Source: a virus. From it: 42,414 nt of DNA. The stretch spans positions 1 through 42,414 of the IMG/VR virus record IMGVR_UViG_3300029581_000022, one strand, 5' to 3'. Made by a program: the position numbers and the translations under genes. The notes beneath the pieces are model-generated. The model was not told the origin of the DNA. It searched no databases and saw nothing but the letters and a program-made list of their open reading frames with translations. How positions within the stretch are numbered: the stretch's first letter is position 1; the number at the start of each line of letters is the position of its first letter. This document shows, piece by piece, positions 32,077-36,386 of the stretch.

Positions 32077-32580
32077 ATGGGCAAGCTCATGGGGGCAAAA
32101 ATCGGCTCTCTGCACACCTTGGACGACCTCGGCCTTTACCTGTTGGTTGGCAGCCCGCTCATCTCCGGGGCTGAGCCGGACAAAAAGCTTGTGCAAGTGC
32201 CGGGCGGCGATTTCTTGCTCGACCTCACCCGGGCTGTGGACGGCAAGGTACACTACCTCCAGCGCACTATTCGGCTTGACCTTAAATGTAAGGCTCCGTC
32301 AGATGAGCGCCGCAAGGTGCAGAGCATCCTCGAAAACGCCTTGCAGGGGCAGTGGCTGCGCTGCGTACTGGACGAGGACCCGGCCAACTTCTGGGTGGGC
32401 CTGTGGACAGTGTCGCCCCAGAGCAGAGACCGGCATACCGGCACATTTTCCATCACCGGCACCTGCAATCCCTACAAGTACAATGCCACCGCCTACGCGG
32501 GCGCAGACTGGCTGTGGGACGATTTTTATTTTGATGAGGACGTCATCTATGACGAGCCTACGGAGGTAAAGAGCCTGTGA
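32077..32580 (+). CDS. Distal tail protein (Dit / Sipho_tail-like)
   Basis: SLHTLDDLGLYLL..VQVPGGDFLLD..YLQRTIRLDLKC...FSITGTCNPYKY fits the Dit pattern. ATG 32077 lies 10 nt after AAGGAG. Confidence 0.45.
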   Translation: MGKLMGAKIGSLHTLDDLGLYLLVGSPLISGAEPDKKLVQVPGGDFLLDLTRAVDGKVHYLQRTIRLDLKCKAPSDERRKVQSILENALQGQWLRCVLDEDPANFWVGLWTVSPQSRDRHTGTFSITGTCNPYKYNATAYAGADWLWDDFYFDEDVIYDEPTEVKSL

Positions 32581-34526
32581 ACAAAACTTTTGAAGAAAAC
32601 ATCAACGACATCCGCAAGGCAAAGCGGGGCGTCGAGGTGCGGGAGGCGATGGCCGAGAGCCTTGAGTATGTGGAGGGCTTTGCCTCCACCGCTACCCAAA
32701 AGGCAGAGGAGGCCGCATCCAGCGCCAAAACTGCCGCCGAGGCCAAGGAAGCCGCCGCCGCCTCTGCTCAGGCTGCGGAACAGCAGGCAGGCATTGCCAC
32801 GCAGCAGGCCGAGACTGCCACGCAGCAGGCCGAGGCCGCTGAAAGCTCCAAAGCTGCCGCTGCGGAGTCTGCCAAGCGGGCAGAGGCGGCTGCCAAGGAG
32901 ACCGAGGGCCGCGTCACCACCGACCCCACCCTCACCATCTCGGGCGCACCCGCAGACGCCAAAGCCACCGGCGACCGCATCAACGCTATCAAAATCGAGA
33001 CCGACAAGACCCTCACCATCTCCGGCGCTGCTGCGGACGCTGCGGCTGTAGGCAGCATCGTACTGCCCCGGGTGGTGGTGCAGACGGAAGCGGGAAGCAC
33101 CGTCACCGCAGTCAGCGGGGACAAAAAGGTAACTGGCACGGCCACCGACGGCAGCTTTTCTGCGGCCCTGCCCCACGACGGCGAGTGGGAGGTCACCGCC
33201 ACGCTCGGCACCGGCGTGGCCACGGAGACAATGCAGGCGGAGTATTGCCGCACCAAGACCCTTACCCTGACCTACTACACCCTGACCGTCACGGTTAAGG
33301 CGGGCAGCACCGTCACCGCCCAGTGCGGGGACAAGACCGTCTCCGGCACGGTGCCGGAGAGCGGCAGCATCAAGCTGTATCTGCCCATCGCTGGCACGTG
33401 GACGGTAACGGCCACGTTGGGCGACGAGACCGCCGAGGGCAGCTTGGAGGTGAGCGAGTACAAGGACTATCCCCTTGAACTTGCATACACCCACATCTAC
33501 GGCGCAAGCTGGGACGGCACCAGCACCACCAAGTGGAGCCGCACCGACGAGGCGGCAGACTTTACCGACCCGGTGCCTTACGTCGCGGGCGCAAGCAGCT
33601 ATGGCAGTCCCTTTGACAACTTACAGCCCTGGGCGGGCATGGTAAAGAGCGAGCGCACCGGCGGCACGATGGTCAGCATCCCGAAATTTTGGTACAAGCT
33701 GACCCAAAACGGCAGGGGCATGAGCATTCAGATCGCCGACCGCGCGGTGGAGGGCTACAGCGTCAGCCCCGCCCACATGGACAGAGGCGACGGTCACGGT
33801 GAGCGGGACGTGGTGTACATCGGCAGATACCACTGCAACGACAGCTATAAGAGCGGCATCGGCAGCCCCAGGGCGAACATGACCCGCTCCTCTGCCCGGG
33901 CGAACATCCACGGCCTCGGCTCTGCCATCTGGCAGTGCGATTTTGCTATGAGGTTTACGCTCTGGCTGCTGTATATCGTCGAGTTTGCCGATTGGAACAG
34001 TCAGGCAAAAATCGGCTATGGATGCGGCAACAACAGCTCTCCGCAGTCGATGGGCTACACCGACAGTATGCCGTACCACACCGGTACGACCCAGAGCAGC
34101 CGCACCGCCTATGGCTACGGGACGCAGTACCGCAACATCGAGGGCCTGTGGGATAACGTGTTGGACTGGTGCGATGGCTGCTACAACAACAGCGACGGCC
34201 TGAACATCATCCTGAACCCCTCCAAGTTCAGCGACAGCAGCGGCGGCACGGCGGTGGGCGTCCCTTCCAATGGCTATCCGTCCGCTTTTGCGGTCAAGGC
34301 GACCGGCGGGTATCCGCTCTTTATCCCGACTGCCGCAAACGGCCGCGCCGAGACCTACTCGTGCGATTTCTGGGGCTTCGGCTCGTCGTACCCCTGCCTC
34401 TCCGTTGGCGGTAGCTATGGCCAGAGCGCCAACCGCGGTCTGTTCTACGTCAACTACTCCTCGGTTTCGAACACTTACGGGGACATCGGCTGTCGTCTCC
34501 AAGAACTCCCCAACGGGGGAGTCTGA
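32577..34526 (+). CDS. Tail fibre / receptor-binding protein; DGR target with C-terminal C-type-lectin/FGE-like variable domain
   Basis: 649 aa. N-terminal Ala/Gln/Glu coiled coil, duplicated TLTISGA.AD motifs and two beta-sandwich repeats. The C-terminus ...YSCDFWGFGSSYPCLSVGGSYGQSANRGLFYVNYSSVSNTYGDIGCRLQ contains the VR. Confidence 0.85.
   Translation: MNKTFEENINDIRKAKRGVEVREAMAESLEYVEGFASTATQKAEEAASSAKTAAEAKEAAAASAQAAEQQAGIATQQAETATQQAEAAESSKAAAAESAKRAEAAAKETEGRVTTDPTLTISGAPADAKATGDRINAIKIETDKTLTISGAAADAAAVGSIVLPRVVVQTEAGSTVTAVSGDKKVTGTATDGSFSAALPHDGEWEVTATLGTGVATETMQAEYCRTKTLTLTYYTLTVTVKAGSTVTAQCGDKTVSGTVPESGSIKLYLPIAGTWTVTATLGDETAEGSLEVSEYKDYPLELAYTHIYGASWDGTSTTKWSRTDEAADFTDPVPYVAGASSYGSPFDNLQPWAGMVKSERTGGTMVSIPKFWYKLTQNGRGMSIQIADRAVEGYSVSPAHMDRGDGHGERDVVYIGRYHCNDSYKSGIGSPRANMTRSSARANIHGLGSAIWQCDFAMRFTLWLLYIVEFADWNSQAKIGYGCGNNSSPQSMGYTDSMPYHTGTTQSSRTAYGYGTQYRNIEGLWDNVLDWCDGCYNNSDGLNIILNPSKFSDSSGGTAVGVPSNGYPSAFAVKATGGYPLFIPTAANGRAETYSCDFWGFGSSYPCLSVGGSYGQSANRGLFYVNYSSVSNTYGDIGCRLQELPNGGV
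34358..34500 (+). repeat. DGR variable region (VR)
   Basis: 143 bp aligned without gaps to 34618-34760 (offset 260). There are 17 mismatches, 14 opposite TR adenines. Confidence 0.9.
34505..34522 (+). promoter_or_regulatory. GC-rich hairpin 4 nt downstream of the VR (DGR target-recognition-type element)
   Basis: actcccc-aacg-ggggagt: 7-bp stem, 4-nt loop. It ends just before the fibre stop codon (34524-34526). Confidence 0.6.
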
Positions 34527-34617
34527 GGGGGCCGCAGCCCACTCAGATAATTGCGCCGTAAGGCGCTGAACTTTTTTGGGACTGTCTGTGCATTGCCGGT
34601 GTTTTTTGTTCTCAGAC

Positions 34618-34760
34618 CTCGTGCGATAACTGGAACTTCGACTCGTCGAACCCCTGCCTCTCCGTTGGCGGTAACTATGACCAGAACGCCAACCACGGTC
34701 TGTTCTACGTCAACTACAACTCGGTTTCGAACGCGAACGGGAACATCGGCTGTCGTTTCC
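34618..34760 (+). repeat. DGR template repeat (TR)
   Basis: It contains 11 AAC codons when read in the VR frame, and lies 139 nt upstream of the RT gene. Track ORF 34551-34820 over it is judged non-coding. Confidence 0.9.
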
Positions 34761-34899
34761 TTTTTGATTTTATCCAACCTCACATTTTTACGGCACAGGC
34801 AGCCGCACACCTCACGGTGAAGATAGGCATTTTGGGAGCAGGCTAGTACACTCCGCAGGGGGCGATGGAAAGCCTGTACAGCTAAAAGGAGGTATCCCA

Positions 34900-36096
34900 A
34901 TGAAGAGAGCTGGAAAGCTCTTTGATACGTTAATCTCAGATGATAATTTGTTGCGAGCCATCGACGAAGTGAACCGCACCCACCACTGGAATCGAGGCCA
35001 CAAGCCCAACACCTGTACGGCGTGGGTGGAGGAGACCAAGGCGCAGCGGGTGGAAGACCTGCGGCGAATACTCGTCGGCGGTTTTGAGCCGAAAAAGCCC
35101 CATGTCAGCCAGCGATGGGACGCCAATGCCCGGAAATGGCGCACCATCAGCGAACCGGCGCAGTGGCCGGACCAGTATGTGCATCACGCCCTCATTCAGG
35201 CGCTGCAGCCGAAGATGATGCGGGGAATGGATTTTTACTGCTGCGGCTCCATCCGGGAGCGCGGGCCGCACCGGGAAAAGAACGCCATCCAGCGATGGAT
35301 GAAGTACGACCGCAAGGGGATGAAGTACGAGTTTTGTGGCGACATCCGCCACTTCTACGACAGTCTGACCCCGGAAGTCGTCATGGCCCGGATGCGGCAG
35401 CTCTACAAGGACTGCCGTGTCCTCGACCTCATCCGGCGCATCATCCGGGACGGCGTAAAGCTGGGGACGTACACTTCCCAGTGGTTCGCCAACGCCGTCT
35501 TACAGCCCCTTGACCGGCTCATCCGGGAGAGCGGCTATTGCAAACACTACGCCCGGTACATGGACAACATGACGGCATTCGGTCCCAACAAACGCAAGCT
35601 GCGGAAGCTCCGCTTACTGGTCGAAGACTGGCTTGACGCCCACGGCCTGCAGCTCAAGGGCGACTGGCAGGTGTTCCCGGTGGCAAAACCGCAGCGCAAA
35701 GAGCCGCTGCTCCCGCCCCGGCGTGGCTATGAGCGCACCAAAGGCCGCCTGCCGGATGCCGTAGGCTATCGCTACGGCAGAGGGTACACCATTCCCCGCA
35801 AGCGGAATCTGCTGCACATCAAGCGGGCGCTGGCGCGGTATCGCAAGCGCAGGCGGCAGGGGAGGCCCATCACGCCCAGAGCGGCAGCAAGTCTGCTCTC
35901 GCGCCTCGGACAGCTCCGGCACTGCAACAATTATCATCTCTATCAATGGCTGTTTCGGGGAGAGCGGGTCGTCCGCGACCTGAAGCACGTCGTCCGAGAG
36001 CATCGGAGAAAGGAGAACCTGACGTGGACTATGTTTTTGGCACAGAGGGCGGCGCTGAAGTCCTCAAGACCATCGGCGACGCTCACACCGGTCTGA
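34900..36096 (+). CDS. DGR-type reverse transcriptase (motif C reads YMDN instead of YxDD)
   Basis: RT motifs: GDIRHFYDSL (A), GVKLGTYTSQWFANAVLQPLD (the DGR-typical SQ motif) and YARYMDNMTAF (C; AAC codon at 35566-35568). AAAGGAGG lies 7 nt before the ATG. Confidence 0.85.
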   Translation: MKRAGKLFDTLISDDNLLRAIDEVNRTHHWNRGHKPNTCTAWVEETKAQRVEDLRRILVGGFEPKKPHVSQRWDANARKWRTISEPAQWPDQYVHHALIQALQPKMMRGMDFYCCGSIRERGPHREKNAIQRWMKYDRKGMKYEFCGDIRHFYDSLTPEVVMARMRQLYKDCRVLDLIRRIIRDGVKLGTYTSQWFANAVLQPLDRLIRESGYCKHYARYMDNMTAFGPNKRKLRKLRLLVEDWLDAHGLQLKGDWQVFPVAKPQRKEPLLPPRRGYERTKGRLPDAVGYRYGRGYTIPRKRNLLHIKRALARYRKRRRQGRPITPRAAASLLSRLGQLRHCNNYHLYQWLFRGERVVRDLKHVVREHRRKENLTWTMFLAQRAALKSSRPSATLTPV

Positions 36097-36386
36097 CCGG
36101 CTACCACCAGCTTGAGCGGGAGTATCCCGACCAGACCATCACCGACAGTTTCCGGGTCATCCGCAAGCTGCGCAGCGCGGAGGACGCGGAGGGGCGCTGC
36201 TATGACTGGTACGAGATCGACCGCCACTACCGGATGACCGACAAGACCGGACCCGTGGCGGAGCAGCTGGCAAAGACTGCCGCAGAGATGGAGGACGCCC
36301 TGTGTGAGCAGGACATGGAATCACAGGAGCGGCTGGCGACTATCGAGGACTCGCTGTGCGAGCTGGACGCCGCCGTCAACAAGTAA
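36024..36386 (+). CDS. XkdW-position hypothetical protein
   Basis: The GTG start lies 7 nt after AAGGAGA. 120 aa. It overlaps the RT 3' end by 73 nt and precedes the XkdX-like gene. Confidence 0.5.
   Translation: MDYVFGTEGGAEVLKTIGDAHTGLTGYHQLEREYPDQTITDSFRVIRKLRSAEDAEGRCYDWYEIDRHYRMTDKTGPVAEQLAKTAAEMEDALCEQDMESQERLATIEDSLCELDAAVNK

Follow-up and report, generated by a model that had tools for sequence, protein, structure and literature searches.

The analysed stretch, hereafter the window, covers positions 1 to 42,414 of the IMG/VR virus record IMGVR_UViG_3300029581_000022 and carries a DGR cassette, all parts of which lie on the plus strand. The target gene (32577-34526) encodes a 649-aa phage tail protein (PHROGs phrog_5302 'tail protein', E 1.6e-31), and its C-terminal 48 codons form the VR (34358-34500, 143 nt), which is 88% identical to the TR. 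The TR (34618-34760, 143 nt, 31 adenines) is non-coding and adjoins the gene for a 398-aa DGR reverse transcriptase (RT; 34900-36096; Pfam RVT_1; PHROGs RT, E 1.2e-64), so that the cassette has the DGR layout of a target ORF with the VR at its 3′ end, next to a TR-RT unit. The 139-nt spacer between TR and RT (34761-34899) contains the RT ribosome-binding site; from its position, it is taken to form the template RNA's 3′ part and to correspond to the Bordetella 'Sp'. A six-frame HMM scan of the window gave a single RT match. The interval between VR and RT holds no ORF, and so no Avd, HRDC, MSL or CH1 gene. The neighbouring ORFs, searched against Pfam and PHROGs, matched tail proteins, an uncharacterised phage family, XkdX and GH25, and none matched Avd. 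When the target protein was searched for a C-type lectin or Ig-like fold, Pfam gave no match and PHROGs gave 'tail protein' only.

Aligned without gaps at an offset of 260 nt, the TR and the VR match at 126 of 143 positions. Of the 17 sites that differ, 14 are TR adenines; the other three, G34733>A, G34735>T and T34757>C, are the non-adenine sites that the first-pass annotation of this DNA had listed. The probability of at least 14 of 17 falling on the 31 adenines among 143 positions is 1.7e-7. All 31 TR adenines occupy codon positions 1 or 2, and 11 in-frame AAC codons are present. The three non-adenine mismatches had been taken as a sign of drift, a reading that did not hold up. Two of them lie in one codon, which is GCG in the TR (34733-34735, with G34733 and G34735) and ACT in the VR (34473-34475, with A34473 and T34475). 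The ACT allele is confined to the window and two related loci (L072 and L076), while GCG is retained in the four other complete VR alleles paired with this TR; since these match the TR at both G sites, the change took place in one VR allele and not in the TR. Counting non-A substitutions in related TR/VR pairs, a check that had been proposed, placed the two G mismatches within the family background, because two events in 111 non-A sites against a family rate of 0.72% per site give P=0.19. We searched the other 66 related TR/VR pairs for an ACT donor and found that none carries ACT, so recombination as the source of this codon is unsupported. When viral contigs were scanned for exact patterns of the TR/VR scaffold specific to the window, nothing was found; contigs with the same element came from a look-up of the exact RT protein. 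The third mismatch, T34757 in the TR and C34497 in the VR, sits at the 3′ edge of the homology in 64 of 66 related TR/VR pairs, the exceptions being the VRs of L015 and L071, which carry the TR's T. Judging from this conservation, the T/C pair is a fixed TR-versus-VR boundary marker, analogous to IMH*/IMH, with T34757 on the IMH*-like side. In a published survey, non-A TR/VR differences were seen in 23% of DGRs (PMC5758913).

A GC-rich hairpin or cruciform, ACTCCCC-AACG-GGGGAGT, with a 7-bp stem and a 4-nt loop, occupies 34505-34522; it starts 5 nt beyond the end of the homology and overlaps the end of the target ORF. We found that its sequence is invariant after the VR in 66/66 related loci and is absent after the TR, and folding it together with the next hairpin gave -16.5 kcal/mol (z = -3.95). 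The cassette thus combines a non-identity of the IMH/IMH* type with an inverted repeat of high GC content that follows only the VR. Phage DGR hairpin loops follow a 5′-GRNA consensus (PMC3240598), and the AACG loop falls outside it. A second GC-rich inverted repeat (34523-34546), conserved in related loci with variation, overlaps the stop codon and might serve as a terminator or belong to the target signal. We also looked for a template-primer duplex like the Bordetella TR:Sp pairing. Complementarity of TR CGGCTGTC with spacer GGCAGCCG recurs across loci, as does the pairing CGGCTG(C/T)C : GG(C/T)AG(C/T)CG, yet it did not rise above shuffled controls, and the longest duplexes were no better than those of shuffled spacers.

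In textbook RT chemistry both aspartates of the YxDD box are indispensable, and replacing YMDD by SMAA is the standard DGR knockout. In the window RT, motif C reads tac atg gac aac (35557-35568), that is Y220, M221, D222 and N223, with the AAC codon at 35566-35568. This motif, pointed out by the first-pass annotation, was borne out by the sequence and by alignment with the Bordetella phage RT (bRT) 8ub7_A, the best PDB match both by sequence (HMMER, E 7.5e-13) and by fold (E 1.8e-12, TM 0.54/0.64). Because ARYMDNMTAFG aligns on ARYMDDIVVLG of bRT, N223 corresponds to D216, D222 to D215 and D148 to D138 (bRT numbering from 10.1101/2023.10.23.563531). Thus two of the three catalytic carboxylates are present and the third is Asn, a departure from the DGR Y-x-D-D box that is conserved throughout the clade and does not look like a lesion. 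The Asp of motif A, the first Asp of motif C and the DGR-type [I/L]GxxxSQ motif are all present (LGTYTSQWFAN aligned on IGSLTSQLFAN of 8ub7_A), and the fingers residues K79 and R81 are conserved. An AlphaFold model of moderate confidence (pLDDT 70.9) placed the strands of the motif C hairpin at residues 216-220 and 223-228. We searched the columns that discriminate DN RTs for a compensating acidic residue and found none; only T225, A287, R335, C342 and R366 emerged. In the bRT cryo-EM structure, Mg2+ was observed 2.2-2.3 Å from D138 and D215 only (10.1101/2023.10.23.563531). Mutation of either YXDD Asp inactivates the HIV-1 and MoMLV RTs (summarised in PMC554778), and both Asp residues were 100% conserved in the 155 DGR RTs of a 2012 survey (PMC3521204).

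Alignment of the RT with its homologs, which had likewise been proposed as a check, showed that the Asn is conserved. YMDN was found in 119/120 of the closest homologs (63-94% identity) and HMDN in the remaining one, so that Asn is present in 120/120. Similarly, all 63 full-length RT genes among 71 related IMG/VR loci encode RYMDN, with synonymous variation at the Y, D and N codons of the motif; the Asn codon is AAC in 62 of these genes and AAT in one. The suggestion that Asn reflects a fresh G>A change away from YMDD therefore fails, Asn being the conserved state of the whole clade. The median dN/dS of the RT is approximately 0.16, and values between the window and its nearest relatives are 0.055-0.07, indicating that the RT is under purifying selection.

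The Asn motif extends well beyond the closest relatives. Among the closest clusters at 50% identity, 128 show a motif C, and at least 36 of these have xxDN; the Asn is usually paired with a Thr two residues on, giving DNxT instead of DDxV. In bacterial genomes, each xxDN RT whose upstream flank is long enough is accompanied by a TR/VR pair showing 8-21 mismatches, of which 80-100% are at A; these RTs share 39-71% identity with the window RT and carry YMDN, YIDN, NMDN or QMDN. One of them belongs to an isolate, Butyricicoccus pullicaecorum DSM 23266, in which 17/17 TR/VR mismatches are at A; its YMDN DGR lies in a prophage (NZ_FUXW01000002.1, ~141.6-152.8 kb), and Lawsonibacter sp. LCP25S3_E2 likewise has a prophage with a YMDN DGR. 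In a YVDN group at ~30% identity, a pair was found at 21 of the 28 loci, and these pairs are adenine-biased as well (72-100% at A). Since distant xxDN RTs (YIDN, YVDN, QMDN and HMDN; ~30-70% identity) adjoin adenine-biased TR/VR pairs, these elements make up, on comparative grounds, a broad clade of DGRs that lack accessory genes, are carried by phages of Oscillospiraceae and other Clostridia, and appear to work with Asp-Asp-Asn and not with Asp-Asp-Asp. In a rough NJ tree, one YMDD sequence (P0126) nested within the DN clade, and DN also turned up in one or more further branches. Searches of viral contigs gave only matches of at most 48% identity for P0126, and no relatives for P0191, an HMDN sequence of the second DN group. 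The substitution spectrum also distinguishes the DN group, in which A>C makes up 4% of the changes vs 21% in the DD relatives (Fisher P = 4e-10). In this family, the TR was also seen to mutagenise itself frequently. In the literature we searched for YxDN-type RTs, none was described for DGRs, and only the belpaoviruses were found.

Evidence of activity came from population comparisons of metagenome assemblies, in which TR/VR repeats can be assembled as chimeras (L078 has a mosaic TR). Seven contigs that encode exactly the window's RT hold a full-length TR copy, which is identical in all of them, and together with the window these contigs display at least five VR alleles with the same RT protein and TR. 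Outside the VR, the window shows 0 differences from L074 over 6373 nt, from L077 over 4293 nt and from L080 over 1685 nt, and inside the VR it shows 8, 20 and 16 differences, respectively. Pairs of VRs with the same TR differ at 6-16 adenine sites vs 2-4 non-A sites per pair. L074 equals the window in the 5′ half of the VR and differs in the 3′ half only, as expected for a partial homing event. At the family level, 153/163 variable VR columns in groups with identical TRs are at TR adenines, and pairs with 100% identity over the 600 nt upstream still differ at 9-19 VR sites. In L059, an orphan copy combines a 5′ flank of the TR type with a 3′ flank of the VR type and is mutagenised at adenines. 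Altogether, the VR turns over while the TR stays constant, a pattern that by comparison points to ongoing mutagenic retrohoming, and we consider it very probable that the window carries a functional, currently diversifying, accessory-free 'target-VR / TR / RT' DGR, borne by a tailed phage of ~42 kb whose hosts are gut Oscillospiraceae or related Clostridia.

The first-pass annotation had left two alternatives for YMDN, a recently inactivated DGR drifting as a fossil or an RT that tolerates Asn, and the data favoured the latter. Under the former, a recent GAC>AAC change killed the RT, the TR and VR are drifting and the receptor specificity is frozen. Such a history would agree with the need for the second Asp in characterised retroviral RTs (PMC554778), with the absolute conservation of both Asp residues in the 155 surveyed DGR RTs (PMC3521204) and with the three TR/VR mismatches outside adenines. 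However, Asn is fixed across the clade down to ~30% identity, the RT evolves at a dN/dS of 0.16, T34757/C34497 is conserved family-wide, and the same RT and TR accompany at least five VR alleles that differ at adenines between identical flanks. The identity of the TR in the seven contigs also means that it has not drifted. Moreover, related YMDN RTs are associated, by comparative inference, with ongoing adenine mutagenesis, which the annotation itself had named as the observation that would speak against a fossil. We rejected recent inactivation on the clade-wide Asn, the purifying selection and the adenine-site VR turnover, and regard it as extremely unlikely; that the RT tolerates Asn is strongly supported by the comparative conservation and the VR turnover. 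A consensus or sequencing error at 35566 hiding a true GAC codon has a practically negligible chance: YMDD is one transition away, but the identical RT protein is on record in 13 contigs, the 10 listed coming from 10 different samples, Asn is encoded by AAC or AAT at the related loci, and it is present in all 120 homologs. These contigs and homologs refute the error.

Two further explanations accept the VR diversity and assign it elsewhere. The YMDN protein might be catalytically dead and kept for RNA binding or targeting, with another polymerase supplying the cDNA, be it an RT of the host, the RT of a co-resident DGR or a DNA polymerase. The absence of Avd, by which the mechanism is already off the paradigm, lends this some credit. 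On the other hand, this is the sole RT of the phage genome, its motif A Asp, first motif C Asp, K79/R81 and TSQ are conserved as expected of an active enzyme, and DN RTs from many different hosts go together with adenine-specific mutagenesis. The A>C share peculiar to the DN group further speaks for cDNA synthesis by the clade's own enzyme, and we find a dead RT unlikely. Alternatively, recombination or gene conversion between related phages could have spread VR diversity among samples without RT mutagenesis. Mosaic TR alleles do exist (L078), and the RT and TR phylogenies conflict, RTs 99% identical to that of the window being found with different TR scaffolds. Yet the differences between VRs of the same TR are confined to TR-adenine columns (153/163) and the flanks are identical, whereas exchange would also move non-adenine scaffold polymorphisms. 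Recombination as the source is thus very unlikely.

For a DGR that is active with Asn at motif C, we propose a mechanism by analogy with the Bordetella system. The TR and spacer would be transcribed, and the RT would copy the TR into cDNA with misincorporation opposite adenines, giving on the sense strand ~60% A>G, 35% A>T and 5% A>C. The cDNA would then replace the whole VR or its 3′ part at the end of the tail-protein gene. The recipient would be marked by its 3′ flank, namely C34497 and the invariant hairpin at 34505-34522, both missing from the TR, and the third non-A difference would accordingly serve as a fixed donor/recipient marker. The two other non-A changes would have arisen, or been erased, along with changes at adenine sites in the VR's 3′ half. 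The RT is a member of a large and old clade that has Asn in place of the third catalytic carboxylate (bRT D216, HIV-1 D186). Since D148 and D222, the homologs of the bRT Mg2+ ligands, are retained, catalysis is expected to run through an Asp-Asp-Asn site, in which Asn223 might ligate or position metal A or the primer 3′-OH via its carbonyl or amide group. Avd is essential in Bordetella and absent here, so part of the mechanism must differ; the way the cDNA is primed and the independence from Avd are, like the chemistry at Asn223, presumed.

The wider suggestion, which we put forward tentatively as possible rather than probable, is that a broad prokaryotic RT clade, the DGR RTs found in phages that infect gut Oscillospiraceae and other Clostridia, naturally runs on Asp-Asp-Asn without Avd, and that the swap perhaps tunes metal use and the misincorporation spectrum and is perhaps linked to TR self-mutagenesis. 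If true, this would provide the first natural system for studying what the third RT carboxylate does, using an enzyme that has evolved in its absence. The clade is abundant in phages of the human and animal gut and combines YxDN with every population-genetic sign of ongoing adenine mutagenesis, so annotation pipelines and curators that score YxDD as the mark of a functional RT would wrongly call its elements dead. For enzymology and for DGR-based directed-evolution tools, it offers a natural Asp>Asn variant with a covarying Thr, apparently no need for Avd and a distinct substitution spectrum. Cultured hosts exist for the clade, for example B. pullicaecorum DSM 23266.

Among known systems, the DGR of Bordetella phage BPP-1 (mtd-VR / avd / TR / brt; 8ub7-8ubf) provides the best RT match by sequence and fold. 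The window cassette resembles it in having the TR adjoining the RT, the VR at the 3′ end of a phage tail or receptor-binding gene, adenine-specific TR/VR differences, a non-identical, IMH/IMH*-like 3′ end and a GC-rich hairpin with a 4-nt loop after the VR only. It differs in carrying YMDN in place of the bRT YMDD (N223 vs D216), in lacking an avd gene, in an RT longer by 70 aa, with an insertion at ~264-299 and a C-terminal helical extension, in a donor/recipient distinction within the repeat that consists of a single T/C, and in a hairpin loop of AACG instead of GRNA. In its target-TR-RT order and absence of an accessory gene, the cassette is like Architecture A1 and the avd-less 'Lineage 3' of Wu et al. 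(2018, PMC5758913), where this architecture accounts for ~29% of 372 surveyed DGRs and the main text does not mention the catalytic motif. The L polymerases of Mononegavirales, with their 'GDN' motif (measles virus D773/N774), form an active palm-domain polymerase family with Asn, not Asp, as the second residue of motif C (PMC7935272), although they are RNA-dependent RNA polymerases and the likeness is one of analogy only. The nematode Belpaoviridae LTR retroelements (Cer7-13 and Atlas virus; YVDN) likewise have Asp replaced by Asn at the last Y-x-D-D position throughout a natural RT lineage (PMC554778, PMC9094657), although theirs are RTs of eukaryotic LTR retroelements and are not homologous to the window RT at the clade level. 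For the DGR clade of the window, the comparative data give evidence that reverse transcription is ongoing.

The window encodes a single reverse transcriptase (RT), a 398-aa protein of a diversity-generating retroelement (DGR) on the plus strand at 34900-36096, which matched Pfam RVT_1 and the PHROGs RT family (E 1.2e-64). Its motif C, at 35557-35568 (+), reads tac-atg-gac-aac (Y220-M-D-N223) as the first-pass annotation described, and thus ends in Asp-Asn (DN) instead of the canonical Asp-Asp (DD). A HMMER search of all PDB chains returned the Bordetella phage DGR RT (bRT; 8ub7_A, E 7.5e-13) as the best chain, and bRT was also the top structural match of the AlphaFold model, in which the motif-C hairpin strands comprise residues 216-220 and 223-228 (pLDDT 70.9). 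In the HMMER alignment, ARYMDNMTAFG of the window lay over ARYMDDIVVLG of bRT, indicating that N223 corresponds to D216, D222 to D215 and D148 to D138. These are the three catalytic aspartates of bRT in the cryo-EM study, where the visible Mg2+ is 2.2-2.3 A from D138 and D215 (10.1101/2023.10.23.563531).

The first-pass annotation took this Asn as a sign of either a recently inactivated, drifting cassette or an RT that tolerates the substitution. When the RT was aligned with its homologs, Asn was kept in all 120 best database matches (63-94% identity), with YMDN in 119, HMDN in one and YMDD in none. Similarly, RYMDN was present in 63/63 full-length RT genes from 71 IMG/VR loci, whose RTs are 83-99% identical to that of the window. 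The Tyr, Asp and Asn codons vary synonymously among these genes (Asn is AAC in 62 and AAT in one), and pairwise dN/dS of the RT had a median of 0.16, with 0.055-0.07 between the window and its closest relatives. By these sequence comparisons, YMDN is no lesion of the RT. A consensus error at the Asn codon was refuted by the 13 contigs on record that encode exactly the window RT protein, from at least 10 separate samples, and by the AAC and AAT codons of the related loci.

The template repeat (TR, 34618-34760) aligned gap-free to the only variable repeat in the window (VR, 34358-34500), at the C-terminus of a 649-aa tail protein, with 126 of 143 positions identical. Fourteen of the 17 mismatches are at TR adenines (P = 1.7e-7 for the bias), and the other three, G34733>A, G34735>T and T34757>C, are those already listed in the first-pass annotation. 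Every one of the 31 TR adenines occupies a first or second codon position, and 11 codons are AAC. By eye, the homology may reach 6 nt further 5′ if a 3-nt gap is allowed (34351-34366 versus 34614-34626; VR AGACCT-ACT-CGTGCG, TR AGACCT-CGTGCG); this stretch could be fortuitous or mark a codon-sized indel at the 5′ boundary. Furthermore, TR 34747-34754 (CGGCTGTC) is complementary to the spacer at about 34806-34813 (GGCAGCCG), and distant DN loci have the equivalent pairing (TR CGGCTGCC, spacer GGTAGTCG). It might play the part of the Bordetella TR:Sp template-primer duplex, but shuffled spacers paired no worse.

Mismatches were mostly at adenines in 66 related TR/VR pairs, and within groups having an identical TR, 153/163 variable VR columns were at TR adenines. 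Loci 100% identical over 600 nt upstream of the VR differed at 9-19 VR positions. For the window element itself, 7 contigs encoding the same RT protein also hold the whole TR unchanged, with its GCG at 34733-35, and these 7 contigs and the window carry at least 5 VR alleles. Contigs L074, L077 and L080 showed 0 differences from the window over 6373, 4293 and 1685 nt outside the VR, and 8, 20 and 16 inside it, with 6-16 at adenine columns versus 2-4 elsewhere, two of the latter always being the window's own odd codon. In L074, only the 3′ half of the VR differed and the 5′ half was the same, the pattern expected of a partial homing event starting at the 3′ end. The comparisons show adenine-restricted VR turnover with constant RT and TR, which on comparative grounds points to activity and is the kind of finding (ongoing adenine mutagenesis by related YMDN RTs) that the first-pass annotation held would overturn inactivation. 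Another contig with the identical RT protein, L078, carries a mosaic TR (1-117, equal to window 34644-34760), whose 5′ half is the family-consensus allele and 3′ half the window allele, through either recombination between co-circulating phages or assembly chimerism. Different TR scaffolds also accompany RTs 99% identical to the window's (L001-L004). The near-identical contigs L072 and L076, from other samples, are 42373 and 42328 nt long, which suggests that the window, at 42414 nt, spans all or nearly all of a phage genome.

The three non-adenine mismatches had also been offered as a possible sign of drift, and this did not hold. The T34757 (TR)/C34497 (VR) difference, 4 nt from the homology end, is present in 64/66 related pairs (the VRs of L015 and L071 have the TR's T) and is thus a fixed mark of donor versus recipient, resembling IMH*/IMH, the TR-side and VR-side 3′ boundaries in Bordetella; nearly every DGR is predicted to have such imperfectly matching repeat ends (PMC5758913). 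Both G mismatches share one codon (TR GCG, VR ACT), and since GCG is kept in the 4 further complete VR alleles that accompany this TR, the change is private to one VR allele (window, L072 and L076) and is not TR drift. ACT was absent from all other related TRs and VRs; its origin is misincorporation by the RT at G or a subsequent point mutation. Across the family, 0.72% of non-A sites are mismatched, against which two among 111 are unremarkable (P = 0.19), and non-A differences occur in 23% of DGRs (Wu et al., PMC5758913). Just 3′ of the VR, a hairpin (ACTCCCC-AACG-GGGGAGT, 34505-34522) is invariant in related loci, and folding it together with a second GC-rich repeat gave z = -3.95, whereas no hairpin was found on the TR flank. 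It parallels the hairpin/cruciform requirement in Bordetella (PMC3240598), although the loop here is not GRNA. In locus L059 (3197-3863), a 262-nt unit occurs three times in tandem, first as the genuine VR that closes the target ORF, then as an orphan copy and last as the TR. The orphan in the middle is flanked 5′ as a TR is, but on its 3′ side it carries the C marker and hairpin of a VR, and 11 of its adenine sites are mutagenised in a pattern that differs from that of the genuine VR. As a natural experiment, this locus suggests that a recipient is defined by its 3′ flank alone, and the sequences show recipients marked by that flank.

The substitution spectrum of DN elements was A>G 60%, A>T 36% and A>C 4%, compared with 40/39/21% in DD relatives; A>C accounted for 24/631 (4%) versus 29/140 (21%) in related DD-type DGRs (Fisher P = 4e-10, L082-L152 pairs). 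The difference could reflect misincorporation preference of the RT or codon selection. Moreover, adenine-depleted TRs lie beside the RT in 9/66 related loci (L049 3719-3861, L047 3720-3862, L029 2684-2826, L011, L019, L033, L052, L055 and L010), with 6-34 of about 33 adenines gone, none left in L049, and non-adenine positions unharmed. The replacing bases (G 67%, T 31%, C 2%) match those of the VR (G 60%, T 35%, C 5%), and the VR often has the same new base (12/17 sites in L055). From their sequences, this looks like irreversible template self-mutagenesis, not an assembly swap. A>G reached 26/27 in L047 and 30/34 in L049, above the spectrum prediction (P = 3e-4 and 4e-3).

Taken together, a fossil cassette, with its RT killed by mutation and its repeats drifting, is refuted by the conserved motif, the purifying dN/dS and the VR alleles that share one RT and TR. 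A dead YMDN RT with another polymerase making the cDNA would also leave an active VR, but this is unlikely, given that the phage has no other RT, that all other catalytic and DGR-specific motifs are kept, and that DN elements have a spectrum of their own, to which codon selection could contribute. Recombination could likewise diversify a VR, but is contradicted by the restriction of VR differences to adenine columns.

To see how far DN extends, motifs were read in the aligned best matches of a HMMER scan over 50%-identity cluster representatives. These comprised 36 DN and 92 DD RTs, with xxDN forms (YMDN, YIDN, YLDN, YADN, YVDN, QMDN, HMDN) reaching down to about 30% identity. In a rough NJ tree, most DN RTs and the query formed one clade with one YMDD (P0126) nested within, and a second DN group and a singleton fell elsewhere. 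Among bacterial genomes representing their species, a TR/VR pair accompanies every xxDN RT for which enough upstream sequence is present, and the two repeats differ at 8-21 sites, 80-100% of them adenines. Most of the hosts belong to the Oscillospiraceae or other Clostridia (Dysosmobacter, Oscillibacter, Lawsonibacter), and they include the isolate Butyricicoccus pullicaecorum DSM 23266 (17/17 at A). In the YVDN group, a pair was found in 21 of 28 loci, all adenine-biased (72-100% at A). The columns best separating DN from DD were N223, T225 (DD: V/I/L), A287 (DD: F/Y) and R335 (DD: Y), among which there was no compensating acidic residue specific to DN RTs. A QMDN subclade (genome contigs L124-L133 and L150; P0131, P0152, P0153) is without both the motif-C Tyr and the DGR hallmark SQ motif (IGAFFSAWFLH), yet in its TR/VR pairs 12-20 mismatches are at adenines, making up 80-100% of the total.

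Of the usual DGR parts, the cassette lacks only the accessory protein Avd and the second Asp, and its architecture is that of an ordinary phage DGR; without Avd, it would belong to Architecture A1 of Wu et al., the accessory-free type that accounts for about 29% of DGRs (PMC5758913). A 120-aa acidic ORF at 36024-36386 (+), uncalled in public records, shares 73 nt with the 3′ end of the RT gene, and genes for an XkdX-like protein and a GH25 lysin come after it. Its C-terminus matches phrog_29248 (function unassigned there, E 4e-8), and the ORF was not Avd-like. What is unusual is the conserved, evidently working YxDN catalytic box, as judged from sequence, in a large clade. The DiGReF survey of 2012 found both aspartates 100% conserved (PMC3521204), the main text of the 2018 survey leaves the motif undiscussed (PMC5758913), and our literature search, incomplete in coverage, returned no paper tying YMDN or YxDN to DGRs or bacterial RTs, so that earlier mention elsewhere is possible. 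During polymerisation by the RT, D148 and D222 would bind the metal, and N223 would probably assist in place of a carboxylate. Natural precedents for DN are the YVDN of nematode belpaoviruses (PMC554778, PMC9094657) and the GDN of mononegavirus L proteins (PMC7935272).
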